Source: Trichormus sp. ATA11-4-KO1 (lineage in GTDB: Bacteria; Cyanobacteriota; Cyanobacteriia; Cyanobacteriales; Nostocaceae). From it: DNA of 64,000 bases. The notes beneath the pieces are model-generated. The model did not search any database. It was not told the DNA's origin and saw nothing but the letters and a program-made list of their open reading frames with translations. Of the stretch, positions 16,087 to 25,436 are shown in pieces. Position numbers and translations under genes: made by a program. The stretch is from positions 192,001-256,000 of the forward strand of contig JAHHIM010000055.1 in assembly GCA_019358915.1 (NCBI GenBank). Direction: 5' to 3'. The stretch's first letter is position 1. Every line of letters starts with the position of its first letter.

Positions 16087-16139
16087 CGAGTGGGTACTAG
16101 TATTTGTTACTCAACACTCAGCACTTTTTTGTTGAAGTT

Positions 16140-16183
16140 TGACGGCTTGTCTTTTGACTAAGGCAATTTGTTCAACTGAAAAT
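16140..16183 (+). promoter_or_regulatory. Putative PetR box (GAC-N5-GTC) with -35/-10 elements of petJ
   Basis: TGACGGCTTGTCTTTTGACT followed by GAAAAT at 16178-16183. It is nearly identical to 17776-17818. Confidence 0.6.
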
Positions 16184-16231
16184 TAGGAAGGATATTGATC
16201 GCATCAGCCGTTTTTGCAGAGAGAACACGAA

Positions 16232-16564
16232 ATGAAAACAATTTTTTCATTACTACTATTAGGCATAACAATCTTCACCTTTGCCTTCAGTAGTCCAGCT
16301 TTAGCAGCAGATACTGTTAACGGAGCTAAAGTATTTAGTGCTAATTGCGCTTCTTGTCATGTAGGTGGCAAAAATCTGGTTCAAGCCAACAAAAGCCTGA
16401 AGAAGGATGATTTGGAAAAATATAATTTGTACTCAGCAGAGGCAATTATTAGCCAAGTTACAAATGGTAAAAATGCTATGCCAGCCTTCAAAGGTCGTTT
16501 AAAACCAGAACAGATTGAAGATGTAGCTGCTTACGTACTTGAACAAGCAGAAAAAGGTTGGTAA
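16232..16564 (+). CDS. petJ: Cytochrome c6
   Basis: Signal peptide ending in ALA, CASCH heme motif, GKNAMPAF and a terminal W. ATG at 16232. Confidence 0.95.
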
Positions 16565-16714
16565 CTAACCTAAATTGATACAGTTTATAGCTGTAGTCAC
16601 ATATATTAGGACAGTGTTGATTGCTCATAGCAATGATGCAACTGAGTTTATACTCAGCACTCAGCACTCAGCACTTAGAAAGGAAGCACTTTACTATAGC
16701 TATTGCTACTGTAG

Positions 16715-16830
16715 ATAGAATACTACTTCGGAGTTGCTAGGTATACTCGACTCAAGCGAAGAGCGCCAGCACAATTAGCGGGGCTGTTTGTCCCGTTAAT
16801 TTTGTTTTTGCCGAAATTGTCAAATACGAT
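16715..16830 (+). ncRNA. Candidate yybP-ykoY-like (Mn2+) riboswitch / structured leader
   Basis: TTCGGAGTTGC ... CGCCAGCAC, the hairpin AATTAGCGGGGC-TGTTT-GTCCCGTTAATT, and a closing CCGAA. These resemble the yybP-ykoY GGAGUAGC/CGUCAUCAC motifs, judged by eye only. Confidence 0.4.
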
Positions 16831-17767
16831 GCTTATGACTTATTTCTGGCGATTATTTTTCAGTGTACTGATTGCTTTCTGCCTAACTTTTGCGACTTCA
16901 GTATCACAATCATTAGCTCTAGATATCACCCAAATAACAGCCAATGAGTATTTAAAATTGGGTGTAAAGCAGATGCAGCGAAGTGATTACCAAGAAGCAA
17001 TCGAGAATTTTAACCAAGCGCTGCAAGTTCAAGAAGATTTTGCTGTAGCTGATAGCGATCACTGTCCTCAATTACCAGATTACCACCAAGCGGGCCGCCT
17101 GCGGACGAGTTTCGCTAATGCAGATTGTACTCAAGCCAAAAATTTAGCCCGTAAGAAATTTGAAACTTATTTGCTTCGGGGATTAGCATACTACAGACAA
17201 GGGGATGATCCAGCAGCCATTGCAGATTATAACCAAGCGATCGCCCTCAAGCCTGATGATTTTCGAGCTTACTACAACCGAGGTCTAGCCCATGCCGGTC
17301 AAGAGAATTATTCACAGGCGATCATCGATTATAATTTAGCTCTAACTCAAATTCCCCAAACAGCTAGTGTATTTTTGGGGGATATCTACAATGACAGAGG
17401 TTTAGCTCATTTAGTCTTGCAAGACTTTCCAGCAGCTATGCTCGATTTTAATTTGGCAATTCGTTTTAATCCGCAGGGTTATCGAGCTTACTTTAACAGA
17501 GGCTGTGCTAGCGGCACAAATGGCGATAATTTTGGTGCAGTCCGCGATTTTTCTCAAGTTATTAAACTTGACCCTAGTAATGCTCAGGCTTACGTTAACC
17601 GAGGAATGGCTCAATATCGCCTAGGATACCATCAAGGAGCGATCGCGGACTTAAAACAAGCATCTGAGTACTTTGGTAACCAAGGAAAGACAGTTGCCTA
17701 CGAAAAAACTTTAGATTTACTCAAGAGTCTGCGCCAACAATTAGAATTTGTCACCGCGATCGCCTAA
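16802..17767 (+). CDS. Exported tetratricopeptide-repeat protein
   Basis: Signal-peptide-like N-terminus and repeated AYYNRG..AI.D..AI TPR units. The real start may be the ATG at 16829 or 16835. Confidence 0.88.
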   Translation: MFLPKLSNTMLMTYFWRLFFSVLIAFCLTFATSVSQSLALDITQITANEYLKLGVKQMQRSDYQEAIENFNQALQVQEDFAVADSDHCPQLPDYHQAGRLRTSFANADCTQAKNLARKKFETYLLRGLAYYRQGDDPAAIADYNQAIALKPDDFRAYYNRGLAHAGQENYSQAIIDYNLALTQIPQTASVFLGDIYNDRGLAHLVLQDFPAAMLDFNLAIRFNPQGYRAYFNRGCASGTNGDNFGAVRDFSQVIKLDPSNAQAYVNRGMAQYRLGYHQGAIADLKQASEYFGNQGKTVAYEKTLDLLKSLRQQLEFVTAIA

Positions 17768-17775
17768 CGGAACTA

Positions 17776-17818
17776 TGACAGCTTGTCTTTTGACACCTAT
17801 TAGCAGTAACTAGAAAAT
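17776..17818 (+). promoter_or_regulatory. Putative PetR box and sigma70 promoter of the TonB-dependent receptor
   Basis: TGACAGCTTGTCTTTTGACA: GAC-N5-GTC, TTGACA at 17790-17795, 17 nt, then GAAAAT at 17813-17818. Confidence 0.55.
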
Positions 17819-17858
17819 AGCATTTGGTTACTGTTTTTACTTGGTGTGAGAAAAAAAC

Positions 17859-19933
17859 GTGAATAAGTCTTTTTTTTTATTGCAGTTGCTTTACCTAGCT
17901 CACTGATAGCTTTTCCTGCTTTAGCTGCTGAGATAAAGCAGGGAAATTCAATCATTTTTAACTTAAATGAAATCGAGTTACCTGCCACTAATGCTGAATT
18001 ATTAACTCAACAATCTATACCAATTGAAGTTAACCCAGAAACTCAGCCGGAAATAGAATCAACTCCCAACGATGATGCAGACATTTTTATAGAAGTGGTG
18101 GGAGAAAAAGACCCTTTGCCTGAGTCTACGCCTGTTTATGTAGTTGATCAAGAAGAAATTAAAAAGCAGGGTGCTACAAGTGTCGCTGATGTCTTAAAAA
18201 GAATGCCTGGTTTTGCCATCAATGATGTAGGTCATGGTGCAGATATTCACACAGGTACATACTACCGGGGAGCCTCAATTAATCAGTCTGTCTTTCTCAT
18301 TAATGGCAGACCAATTAATAATAATGTCAACACTTATCATGGTGGAACCGATTTAAATAGTATTCCTGTAGAGGCCATTGAACGAGTGGAATTATATAGC
18401 GGTGTAACTTCCGCTTTGTATGGTTCATCAGCCTTTGGGGGAGTTGTGAATATCATCACCAAAGAAGGTTATGGTCAACCTAAATTGACTGGTAGTGTAG
18501 AATTTGGCTCATTGAGCTTAAATAATCAACAAGTAAGCTATGGTGGCTCGGTTGGCGATGCTCGGTATAACTTCAGTTTTGAAAGATTCTTTATAGATAA
18601 TCGTTACCGTGTTCCCGTTGGTGCAGCCAATCGTGATGCTCAAGGCTTTTTATCGAATGCAGACACAGCTACCAGTACCTACTTTGGCAGTATTGCTTTA
18701 GATTTAGATAGTAAAAATTCTTTGAGTTTAGATGTTAAAAAACTTAGCAGTCGTAGAGGTTTAATTTATTTCGGATTCCCTCTACAAAGAGATAGATTAG
18801 ACCATGATGGCTTCAACGTTGGCTTATCTTGGAAAACTCGATTGAGTGAAGGGGAAAATTCAAATCTCACAACCACACTTGGCTATAACCAAGATTATTT
18901 CAGCACTTATGGACCTACAGTTTTTGCCGGACAGGAATTTAACCGCACAGGAGTTTTAGACACACAACAACTCACAGCCAGAATAGATCATGATTGGAAA
19001 TTAACACCTCACAATAAATTGCGTTGGGGATTAGATTTAAAAAATACTAACTTAAACGGCGATACTATCAGTACTAGACCTGATAGAATTGCTAATAACG
19101 GCACTGAAAATAGAAATGTATTAAATACAGCATTGTTTGCTGTTAATACTTTAAACATTAGTAATAATTTTCAGATAGATTTAGGGCTAAGACAAAGCTT
19201 TGATGGGCAGTTTGGCAATTATCTCAATCCTAGTGCTGGGTTACGTTATGCCCTCACACCAACAGTAGCCTTCCGTGGAAGTTGGGCAGGAGGACAGCGC
19301 AATCCTGGGTTAGATCAATTATATGTTTATGATACAGTTCACGGTTGGGAACCAAACCCCGATTTAAGACCAGAAACTGGTTCATCATGGACTGCGGGAG
19401 TAGATGTCAAACTAGCTAATAATTTGATTGGACAGTTTACTTACTTCGGTAGTAGTTTGGATAATCGCTTAGGAATTATAGCCGGAAGATGGGAAAATAT
19501 TGGGTTAGTAAATACTAATGGTTTAGAGGCAGCATTGCAATTACAAATTGCCGATGGTTGGTCAACTTTCCTCAATTATACTTATACAGATGCTCAAATA
19601 AAAACGGGAGTAGAAAGAGGGTTACAGTTGGGTTTAATTCCTTATTCTGTCATGCAAACTGGTATAGGTTATCAAAATTCAGGTTGGCAAGCTAACTTAT
19701 ATGTTACCTATAACAGTGGCACGCGTAGAGCCTTATTTAATAACCCTGGTGAAAGTAATAGAGATTTTGCACCTTCTTTCTTAAACTTAGATTTGAGTGG
19801 TCGTATACCTTTAACTAGCAATTTAGGTCTGACAGTTTATTTAGAAAATTTACTAGGTGAGCAATACGAGCGAGTTAATCGTATCTATAGTCCTGGGTTG
19901 ACATTTCGTGTAGGTTTAACCTCAAATTTGTAG
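17859..19933 (+). CDS. TonB-dependent outer-membrane receptor; N-terminus frameshifted in a T9 tract
   Basis: Plug motifs (VFLINGRP, DLNSIPVEAIERVE, SALYGS.AFGGVVNIITK), NPDLRPE and a beta-barrel C-terminus. The frame is open from 17867; the GTG at 17859 joins it only if one T is added at 17870-17878. Confidence 0.9.
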
Positions 19934-19941
19934 TAGCGTGT

Positions 19942-20066
19942 CTAGTACTCTGCCAAACTAAATTTGATGGGTGAAAGAATGAACCGCAAAGTACACAAAG
20001 GAAAAGGGAAAAAAGAAAAATTTAAAGGTTGATTAACCTATCAAAATTAACCTGGTGGAGTAGTAG
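19942..20066. mobile_element. MITE-like element with imperfect terminal inverted repeats
   Basis: CTAGTACTCTGCCAAACTAAATTTGATGGGT ... ACCTATCAAAATTAACCTGGTGGAGTAGTAG. Confidence 0.6.
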
Positions 20067-20149
20067 AATGCGTGTGCTACACGATTGAGCTAATTATATT
20101 GGTAAATTTGCCAAACCAGGATGCTCCCAAGCAATATACAATAGCTGAT

Positions 20150-20350
20150 ATGAGAGCCAGTATTGAAAATACAGTGCTGTTTTTGCACCATGAGGACTTA
20201 CCAAAATTTAAAAAAGGCGGTTCGGTGGTAAGAAATTCTTATTTCTGGGCTTTACGTTCAATTGCTGGTCGAACTTCTCGTTATCGTGATGCTGAAATTG
20301 AAAAATGTTTAGCATCCTTTGAACCTCAGATTTTAGATGAACCGCAGTAA
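20150..20350 (+). pseudogene. Truncated conserved cyanobacterial hypothetical protein fused to a probable IS110 transposase fragment
   Basis: MRASIEN..KKGGSVVRNSYFWALRSIAGR is followed by an abrupt switch to DAEIEKCLASFEPQ. Confidence 0.5.
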
Positions 20351-23547: not shown

Positions 23548-24900
23548 TTAACCACCAATTAGCGGTTTGAGATGAGCAGTAAACCTGGCATTTTGCAAAG
23601 CTTGAACTGTGATGCGAGAGTCTTGCACACAAAATTGCCAACCTAAGCGAACTAACTTGCGGGAATTTTCAGCTTGGACAATTCCGATCACTGGCATTTT
23701 TGCCTTTTCTTTATCACCTGACTGTTCTTGCAAAATTGTTTTTAAGCGATGTAGTTCTTCGATGTCGGCTGCTTGTTGAGGATTTAGTTCTACCATTACC
23801 ATTTGCACTGTTTCTACTGGTTCGGCATCTTCAACAATCAATTGAGTTTGTTCATCTCTTCGGTCTACTTTACCCCAAATAATCAATCTCACATCGACTT
23901 GGAGTAGAAAACTAATGCGTTCGTAAGTTTTAGGAAAAACAATAGCTTCCGATTGTGCAGTTAAATCTTCTATTTGTAAAATAGCCATCGGATCACCTTT
24001 TTTAGTCATCACTTTTTTGACATTATTTAGCATGATCACCACACAAACTTTTGTATCTTCTCTTTGTTCGTTGAGTTGTGAAAGGTTAATTGGAGTCAGT
24101 AGTGATGCTATTGGTCTTAAAGATTTTAATGGATGATCTGATACATAAAAACCCAGCAATTCTTTTTCCATGCGTAATTTTTCCTGTGGGGGAAAATCCA
24201 TCACAGGTTCAGCTTTGGGAACAGCTGCAAAGGCATTACTCGCTGTTTTATTATTAGTATTTGCAAAACTACCACCTAACAAATCAAACAGATTTCCTTG
24301 GCCGCTAGCCCTATCTTTGGCACGGGACTGCGCCCAATCGTAAACTAGTTCTAAATCACGGATTAATTGTTGGCGGTTGGATTCAATTTTGTCAAAGGCA
24401 CCACAGTAAATCAGTGATTCCAAAGTCCGGCGATTAACAGCGCGCAGATCCACGCGATCGCAAAAATCAGCGAGTGATTTAAACTCTCCGCCCTCACTTC
24501 TAGCTTCCAGAATACAGGCGATCGCATTTTGCCCCACGTTCCGCACAGCTGAAAATCCAAATAAAATCTTTCCAGCCGCAGGTGTAAAATCCAGCCCAGA
24601 GCGATTAATATCAGGCGGATCTATGGGAATACCCATGCTCGTGCAGTTATTAATATATTTCTGCACTTTATCTGTATCGCCACTGTTAGCAGTCAGCAGC
24701 GCCGCCATATACTCTAATGGATAATTAGCTTTCAAATATGCAGTTTGATAAGTAACATATCCATAAGCAGTTGAATGAGATTTATTGAAACAATTGGAGG
24801 CTATCAAACCATTTTTAATGGCAAAATTATGGTCACGTTCTACCCCAATGTCATAAACGTTTTCTCTACCTACAAATTTACGAGCAACTATTTTGACCAT
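23548..24900 (-). CDS. dnaE-C: DNA polymerase III alpha, C-terminal partner with split intein IC (first 36 aa, 24900-24793)
   Basis: MVKIVARKFVGRENVYDIGVERDHNFAIKNGLIASN|CFNKSHS, plus EKELLGFYVSDHP and an OB fold. ATG at 24900, after GAGAGG. Confidence 0.97.
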   Translation of the reverse strand: MVKIVARKFVGRENVYDIGVERDHNFAIKNGLIASNCFNKSHSTAYGYVTYQTAYLKANYPLEYMAALLTANSGDTDKVQKYINNCTSMGIPIDPPDINRSGLDFTPAAGKILFGFSAVRNVGQNAIACILEARSEGGEFKSLADFCDRVDLRAVNRRTLESLIYCGAFDKIESNRQQLIRDLELVYDWAQSRAKDRASGQGNLFDLLGGSFANTNNKTASNAFAAVPKAEPVMDFPPQEKLRMEKELLGFYVSDHPLKSLRPIASLLTPINLSQLNEQREDTKVCVVIMLNNVKKVMTKKGDPMAILQIEDLTAQSEAIVFPKTYERISFLLQVDVRLIIWGKVDRRDEQTQLIVEDAEPVETVQMVMVELNPQQAADIEELHRLKTILQEQSGDKEKAKMPVIGIVQAENSRKLVRLGWQFCVQDSRITVQALQNARFTAHLKPLIGG

Positions 24901-25436
24901 CTTACCTAACCTCTCTTGTTTTGTCTTGAGATTGCTGACCTTAGTGGCTGATTTACTCAACCATCTTCCTATTCATCTTCATCGCTGGAGTTATTTTCCT
25001 TCTACTCCTGTTGACGATTTCTTTTGCTTTAACTCCTCTTGATTGTAAAAAACCTACACCTGTCAGCACTCCCCCATAAAGCTTTTGTGATAAAATCTTG
25101 AAGTTTTTCTCGGATTTTTGAAGATAGGCAGTTTCAGCCCTGGCATCAAGTTAATTTTTATGACAAAAATTTGATCAAATTGTGTTGTTTAATTGAACTT
25201 TCCTCTTCCTCGCTCTTCGGTTCTCTTACACAAAACTGAATATAGTACACAACCAATCTAGGAAATTTGAAATATTCAGGCAATCGATTCAGCAAACTCA
25301 TAGGGATACATCCCCTATATAAACTTCTCACAAAATTGCCCTACAGTCGCCAGTAAGCCTTTTGTGTTAGAATTTTGGTGTGTTTTGACTTTTTTGTTTT
25401 TGGGCGAGTTCAAACCCACGCATCAGGAGAATTTTC

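Follow-up and report, generated by a model that had tools for sequence, protein, structure and literature searches.

In Synechocystis PCC 6803, the activator PetR and the protease PetP govern four genes (petE and petJ, slr0601 and slr0602), with no transporter among them in the available text of that study (bioRxiv 10.1101/2020.07.31.226407). The same source gives GAC-N5-GTC as the PetR core and, for petJ promoters, TTTGAC-N9-TTTGAC as a direct repeat positioned at -35. A 2026 review places petE and petJ alone under PetR in its accessible part (PMC13421787). How copper crosses the outer membrane of cyanobacteria with high affinity is not well defined; porins are discussed in a 2025 review, and the term 'TonB' is absent from its accessible part (PMC12292863). 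All3310 of Anabaena, also called BtuB1, has been published as a constitutive cobalamin (B12) receptor, and the available text of the papers on it draws no link to PetR or copper (PMC10878165, PMC2771747). Here we analyzed 64,000 nucleotides (nt) of the 5.97 Mb genome of Trichormus sp. ATA11-4-KO1 (contig JAHHIM010000055.1, positions 192,001 to 256,000, forward strand; hereafter the window), which encode petJ and, downstream of it, a TonB-dependent transporter (TBDT) termed the receptor. Comparative genomics places the receptor very probably under PetR control, and we consider it probable that it is both switched on by PetR at low copper and engaged in the import of copper or a small copper chelate. 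A literature search, with subscription papers and bioRxiv supplements outside its scope, found no paper that links PetR to the receptor, IacT or MbnPH.

PetR-type sites ahead of petJ and the receptor gene

Sequence comparison of the two 19-mers at 16140-16158 and 17776-17794, which a sequence-only reading of the window had singled out, revealed a single-base difference between them. They are the only matches to the 19-mer in the window at up to three mismatches (0.05 expected; two matches in 0 of 100 shuffles), and the only ones in the whole genome at up to one mismatch. Both sites contain GAC-N5-GTC beside a TTGAC -35 element, and the activation of petJ by PetR/PetP through such boxes, which that reading had invoked, agrees with the published motif (bioRxiv 10.1101/2020.07.31.226407). 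The gene downstream of the first site is petJ, with model NF045930 scoring above its cut-off. The receptor site departs from the published direct repeat at one position and sits just past the stop codon of an intervening gene for a TPR-repeat protein. In both promoters TTGAC(T/A) is followed by GAAAAT, at a spacing of 18 nt for petJ and 17 nt for the receptor, as had been described. A terminator-like hairpin (17802-17835) overlaps the predicted -10 element and the start of the receptor transcript.

A position matrix for the PetR site was trained on 27 petJ promoter sites only. In the source genome it scores the receptor site equal to that of petJ (32.5 each), followed by the site of a DsbD_2 gene (28.4), and all other sites reach at most 22.8. 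The motif scan upstream of receptor orthologues revealed a conserved box, and the outcome that would have spoken against PetR control, loss of the motif among orthologues, did not appear. GAC-N5-GTC-N4-GAC lies upstream of 80/80 close orthologues (the best 80 of 158 relatives confirmed by genome scan), compared to 0/464 downstream control windows; GAC, GTC and TTGAC are invariant in these boxes, the spacer varies, and the -10 region is kept as A-N-A-A-T among orthologues. In a wider sample of 401 genomes across the phylum, with 50 of the 51 orthologue rows used (one fragment omitted), the matrix score exceeds the threshold of 18 at 42 loci, down to an identity of ~51%, compared to none of the eight paralogue rows of the sample, which are 29-32% identical to the receptor. 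Altogether, comparative genomics strongly supports the proposed membership of the receptor in the PetR regulon.

The source genome also encodes petR-petP (L084) and petE (L085), the latter with a core-only site. petR was found in 42/42 genomes tested, some of which lack the receptor, and its co-occurrence with the receptor is therefore uninformative. By reading of the sequences, the receptor adjoins petR-petP in two distant genomes (L129 and L131) and exbB/exbD/tonB-like genes in four loci (L122 and L133-L135). Since the TPR gene intervenes between petJ and the receptor, the two have separate promoters, which corrects the sequence-only reading. A single operon running from petJ to the receptor was considered and rejected: each gene is led by its own box, and no more than 21-22 of the 80 close loci have petJ at a distance of up to 4 kb. 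A TPR-like match occurs in 22 of these 80 loci. As had been noted before, no cobalamin riboswitch is evident, with no Rfam family reaching threshold in the window. A Zur-like consensus gives only chance-level matches in the window and none in the receptor promoter.

The receptor is 81% identical to protein P0126 of the 401-genome sample, whose cluster contains a Nostoc sp. PCC 7120 entry and which genome G755 encodes at 100%. Seven of the eight published btuB1 (all3310) primers translate exactly into P0126, and the eighth is a promoter primer. By sequence, we identify the receptor as orthologous to Anabaena All3310/'BtuB1'.

Several points weigh against PetR control or qualify the evidence for it. 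The orthologue genomes are kin, and the conservation counts are not independent events. Eight of the 50 wider loci lack a full activator box: L240 has a site before a small upstream gene, five carry the core palindrome only, and L122 and L128 have no PetR-type site at all. The weak promoter matches TTGAC(T/A)/GAAAAT alone are about as frequent as chance predicts (10, with 10.4 expected). Moreover, all3310 was expressed in almost all conditions, including copper omission, in a non-quantitative reverse-transcription PCR described in the available text of PMC2771747. The all3310 forward primer printed there has six mismatches at the locus and matches exactly at G755:C1:5871880-5871900, ~1.9 Mb off, and the reverse primer likewise fails to match the locus, which may reflect either a typesetting error or a wrong amplicon. 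In biofilm data all3310 (-3.1), petJ (-2.1) and iacT (-3.8) are jointly down, which lends weak support to co-regulation because 17.7% of genes change.

Promoter architecture varies in one genus, where the receptor promoters of L115, L117, L118 and L119 carry perfect TGACA-N3-TGTCA palindromes and no direct repeat; in three of the four the palindromes are doubled, 42-43 nt apart. Such promoters may represent a different mode of PetR control. Genomes of genus g3 (L212 and L214) have two petJ copies near each other, each box-led, and no receptor match was found at E 1e-60 in the two genomes of this genus tested. Two further features of the window may be mentioned. A small gene at 20072-20350 is present in 56/80 orthologue loci, matches no family and has an apparently divergent 3' end here, and an open reading frame (ORF) at 23548-24960 resembles the C-terminal portion of a split DnaE together with its short intein part, an ordinary cyanobacterial feature.

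Table 1. Features of the petJ-receptor region (window coordinates)
Feature	Position	Strand	Remarks
PetR activator site of petJ	16138..16158	+	exact TTTGAC-N9-TTTGAC; core GAC-N5-GTC at 16141-16151; matrix 32.5
Predicted petJ promoter	16154..16183	+	-35-like TTGACT, 18 nt, weak -10 GAAAAT; consensus match only
petJ, cytochrome c6	16232..16564	+	NF045930, 172 bits (cut-off 135)
TPR-repeat protein gene between petJ and receptor	16829..17767	+	no box of its own in the source genome
PetR-type activator site of receptor	17774..17794	+	TATGAC-N9-TTTGAC; core GAC-N5-GTC at 17777-17787
Predicted receptor promoter	17790..17818	+	TTGACA, 17 nt, GAAAAT
Conserved GTG start	17859..17906	+	own frame encodes a 15-residue peptide, then stop
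T9 run, candidate slippage site in signal-peptide region	17870..17878	+	frame break
TBDT body (remainder of the signal peptide, then plug and 22-strand barrel)	17879..19933	+	Pfam; AlphaFold2
His52	18248..18250	+	invariant; plug loop (predicted topology)
His82	18338..18340	+	invariant; second plug loop (predicted topology)
His237	18803..18805	+	invariant; outer end of barrel strand 6 (predicted topology)
His416	19340..19342	+	invariant; extracellular loop 7, within a stretch of 6 residues inserted relative to E. coli BtuB

The frame break in the signal-peptide region

Across the T9 run the receptor body is shifted by one base from the frame of the GTG at 17859, a point that the sequence-only reading had missed, and the source-genome receptor has no continuous frame with a signal peptide. 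Among the close loci the frame is intact in 76/80 and broken in 4/80. The 389 genomes of the family hold six out-of-frame copies (five with T9, including the source genome, and one with T8) and two in-frame relatives. The 5' regions of the out-of-frame copies are mutually closest (140-160 of 165 positions matching, compared to at most 127), and a single origin of the break is possible; the tree of receptor bodies requires two frame changes. An assembly error at the T run was considered and rejected: a contig assembled from the likely source run spans 16653-20100 without gap or mismatch at a depth of ~1000, a check that is not independent of the assembly, as contigs drop rare variants, and the same break occurs in other genomes.

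For the receptor bodies, four frameshifted pairs gave a ratio of nonsynonymous to synonymous substitutions (dN/dS) of 0.09-0.125, with dS reaching 0.29, compared to 0.05-0.13 for 13 intact pairs; judged from these ratios, the out-of-frame bodies are under purifying selection. Runs of nine T or A are prone to slippage, and a conserved run length is a sign of use, according to the available text of PMC1088944. The intact body, the shared T9 run and the slippage-prone nature of such runs together make transcriptional slippage or -1 frameshifting the likeliest route, and the receptor is probably expressed in this way. At the T9 run we saw no hairpin at a distance suited to stimulating -1 ribosomal frameshifting.

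Phase variation, alternative starts and silence are less likely than slippage. It is rather unlikely, yet worth weighing, that the receptor gene is silent here, either as a pseudogene or switched OFF by phase variation, or that its translation begins at a non-canonical start. In favor of this are the out-of-frame position of the conserved start, an in-frame stop just upstream of the body and the T8 that one genome carries rather than T9; in addition, NCBI annotates close relatives (P0005 and P0006) from an ATT codon, and in G503 an alternative GTG shares the frame of the body. However, the intact bodies and the dN/dS values argue against this reading, and no in-frame T-run form was found in the frameshifted lineages among the 389 family genomes. 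Alternative starts are not common to the genomes, and their use would lose the charged n-region. Apart from the receptor, the only plug-domain matches in the source genome are two (C9:290-595 and C21:15142-15444) in short frames of 412 and 360 amino acids (aa), which may be broken or cut TBDT genes.

Genes that share the box

A motif search over 42 genomes, with downstream genes read in 90 loci (a subset of the matches, which include several by chance or with no assigned gene), revealed a recurrent box-led set: petJ, the receptor, a DsbD_2-reductase gene, a His-rich secreted protein, PepSY_TM proteins and porins. Also recurrently box-led are tonB or exbB, and mbnP-mbnH operons with divergent TBDTs bearing an AMIN domain. 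The mbnP-mbnH assignment is based on TIGR04052 and TIGR04039, both above cut-off. MbnP is named copper-binding by NCBIfam, and MbnP/MbnH are associated with methanobactin operons and TBDTs in the available text of PMC3621798. When mbnP loci were taken by family search, which removes ascertainment bias, and 27 of 30 were scored (three second matches dropped), the box preceded mbnP at 16/18 loci of the same family or order, including 9/11 not previously seen, and at 0/9 in genomes related only at the phylum level, compared to 0/27 control windows. A family search found no mbnP in the source genome.

The third PetR-type site of the source genome lies on another contig (C65 11294-13217, L234), ahead of a 413-aa membrane protein that combines DsbD_2 with a ferric-reductase-like domain. 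Its gene overlaps one for a 209-aa secreted, C-terminally anchored protein, which has no Pfam family, and this box-led pair recurs across many genomes. A search of the ESM Atlas returned no named family for two co-regulated proteins.

In G755 the strict box search revealed five sites (compared to two with the reverse-pattern control), which precede petJ, all3310, the DsbD_2 gene, iacT and a permease-ATPase-hutA2-binding-protein operon. The iacT gene (L339 3439-6021, minus strand) has an exact activator box 76 nt upstream. IacT is an experimentally described iron and copper transporter whose transcript appears under copper and not iron limitation, and the hutA2 transcript behaves likewise, as far as the available text of PMC2771747 goes. 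Five box-led AMIN TBDTs have 54-73% identity to IacT, and the box-led relatives of IacT are often divergent from mbnP-mbnH.

Three further observations concern box-led genes. The His-rich secreted protein (~150-165 aa) is box-led in L197, L144, L145, L165, L181 and L224, often before the DsbD_2 gene; it has no Pfam or NCBIfam match, and its closest named Atlas cluster, DUF6130 at 0.86, is a lead only. In three distant genomes (L146, L180 and L240:801-1175) a box leads the gene of a small membrane protein with GLTT repeats, and this gene directly precedes the receptor in G273. In G291 (L233), a box with one mismatch lies ahead of DUF2231 genes heading an apparent cytochrome c oxidase operon.

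Receptor structure, substrate and relation to known systems

Pfam Plug and barrel domains are found in the receptor body. The AlphaFold2 model, computed with a 150-sequence alignment, consists of a plug and a 22-strand barrel, with a predicted local distance difference test score of 93.3 and a predicted template modelling score of 0.92. Structural comparison revealed E. coli BtuB as the nearest fold, with a Z-score of 39.3 and a root-mean-square deviation of 2.7 over 569 aligned residues at 20% identity; the top 15 rows are all BtuB structures, followed by ShuA (34.0), ZnuD (33.8) and OprC (33.0). A BtuB-like fold by itself shows no function. Every curated TBDT model scores far under its cut-off on the receptor, including the B12 receptor models TIGR01779 (147 of 600 bits) and NF007926 (115 of 836 bits). 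In a library of 50% clusters the family looks compact, with few full-length clusters at 49-59% identity and the next at ~33% or less.

Four histidines, numbered in the 612-aa ORF starting at 18095 (Table 1), are kept in 51/51 orthologues and missing from 8/8 paralogues. In the strand topology of the model all four lie on the outer face, and we infer that they may form one site. The His-containing segments pointed out from sequence are present, but in GHGADIH conservation does not extend to the first His (37/51), and the fourth invariant His, in RLDHDG, had been overlooked.

From the co-regulated genes and the invariant histidines, the receptor probably imports copper or a copper chelate, the substrate which the sequence-only reading had proposed and which we, too, infer. 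A number of facts have to be set against copper. Besides the BtuB-nearest fold, there is no OprC-like Cys/Met copper site, as the ORF is devoid of Cys and none of its Met residues is conserved. In G755 a variant of the box precedes the permease-ATPase-hutA2-binding-protein operon, a heme operon (L340 640-6453). Six more copper-induced TBDT genes listed in the available text of PMC2771747 had no site in the box search. In the accessible text on Anabaena, copper content is lower in both btuB1 and btuB2 mutants, with iron and manganese also lower; btuB1 mRNA is present in standard medium and rises 10-fold in the btuB2 mutant, and the btuB1 btuB2 double mutant was never obtained (PMC10878165).

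The main competitor of copper import is that the PetR-activated receptor imports heme or an iron complex and thereby pays the iron cost of the switch to cytochrome c6, which we regard as unlikely. Heme receptors such as ShuA and HemR use a plug His and a loop-7 His located between FRAP and NPNL motifs. By topology, His82 in the plug and His416 of loop 7, flanked by FRAP-like and NPNL-like motifs, would fit such a pair. A box leads the hutA2 heme operon, and in G059 (L228) a permease gene of similar type is led by a box like it; moreover, a ferric-reductase-like domain is present in the co-regulated DsbD_2 protein, and a supplement note lists all3310 as up in iron deficiency. However, the heme receptor model TIGR01785 reaches 108 bits of a cut-off of 317, and separate heme receptors, HutA1 and HutA2, have been described (PMC10792254). 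A bis-His heme site would also leave two more invariant histidines unexplained, and the presence of MbnPH and IacT in the regulon points to copper.

It is quite improbable that the receptor serves basal cobamide (B12) import, the role proposed for BtuB1, with a real PetR box that is incidental to the substrate; we know of no reason for B12 uptake to track copper. BtuB is the best match in both family and fold, no BtuB2 paralogue was found in the source genome by tblastn, and the induction of btuB1 in the btuB2 mutant, together with the missing double mutant, would suit such a role. Against it stand the low TIGR01779 score and the published data on Anabaena, in whose available text btuB1 has no riboswitch and no cobalt induction, its promoter-GFP fusion gives no signal, and the mutant has no significant defect in 57Co-B12 uptake after starvation; copper limitation is not among the conditions of that study (PMC10878165). 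A cobalamin riboswitch leads 7/8 paralogue loci, compared to 0/10 orthologue loci tested, and in relatives a distinct riboswitch-led paralogue takes this role. This split between riboswitch and box, with the btuB1 mutant, supports the earlier contention that the receptor is not a B12 receptor.

Histidine-only sites suit zinc and nickel as well as copper. That the PetR-activated receptor carries another His-liganded metal (zinc, nickel or cobalt) or scavenges metal chelates unselectively is similarly improbable: the joint loss of manganese, iron and copper in the btuB1 mutant and the low ligand selectivity of the chelate importer CrtA in the available text of PMC12914433 favor it, but the receptor promoter has no match to the Zur-like consensus, and copper-sensor regulation and the company of MbnPH favor copper.

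We propose that PetR-driven copper import would proceed as follows. At low copper PetP would be inactive and PetR would accumulate, as shown in Synechocystis. PetR would then bind the box overlapping the -35 element and activate a weak promoter, as shown for petJ and suggested for the receptor by motif and spacing. The receptor might capture Cu(II) or a copper chelate via two plug and two barrel histidines, with TonB-ExbBD driving import, and metal in the periplasm could be handled here by the DsbD_2/reductase-like membrane protein and its partner, and elsewhere by MbnPH, PepSY_TM proteins and IacT. In the source lineage, full-length receptor would probably arise only by T9 slippage. More tentatively, it is possible that PetR of filamentous cyanobacteria is the master activator of a copper-starvation uptake regulon comprising a four-His TBDT family (a new, BtuB-derived type of copper importer), IacT, MbnP-MbnH, PepSY_TM and DsbD_2-reductase proteins, and a heme operon that would serve cytochrome c6, with the importer of one lineage expressed only via conserved T9 slippage. 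If true, PetR would switch on scavenging as well as the electron-carrier swap, widening a four-gene photosynthesis switch; a widespread 'B12 receptor' protein would be reassigned, a mechanism would emerge for the puzzling BtuB1 phenotype and the copper response of IacT, and the few known copper TBDTs would be joined by a new His-based family. Mutants of all3310 and iacT and reporter strains exist, which makes the claim directly testable.

With the PetR/PetP regulon of Synechocystis PCC 6803 the source genome shares the core, the direct repeat overlapping the -35 element, petR-petP, petE and petJ, as far as the published text available goes (bioRxiv 10.1101/2020.07.31.226407); unlike there, the motif here marks outer-membrane and periplasmic uptake genes. 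All3310/BtuB1 is, like the receptor, a stand-alone gene with no riboswitch and with a box upstream (in G755), whereas the receptor gene here has the frame break in its signal peptide and lies near petJ. E. coli BtuB is the closest solved fold, from which the receptor differs by its score far below the family cut-off, the absence of a riboswitch and the His-bearing insertion in loop 7. OprC and MbnT are low-copper TBDTs, as proposed for the receptor. The copper site of OprC is formed by Cys and Met, and this site is absent from the receptor. IacT (All4026), the iron/copper transporter, is a box-led TBDT as well, but belongs to a different TBDT family with an AMIN domain, a length of ~830-860 aa and patchy local similarity of 26-32% to the receptor. 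CrtA of Bordetella resembles the receptor as a low-copper TBDT with invariant His and no Cys or Met, and its genes adjoin PepSY_TM genes, whose products are box-led in cyanobacteria; it differs in being proteobacterial, 707-911 aa long and regulated through the upstream ORF CruR, with its key His on strand 8, according to the accessible text of PMC12914433. By this description, in length and His placement, the CrtA family appears to be different from that of the receptor. As a copper-chelate importer with a His-only site, CrtA nevertheless provides a precedent for the receptor (PMC12914433).

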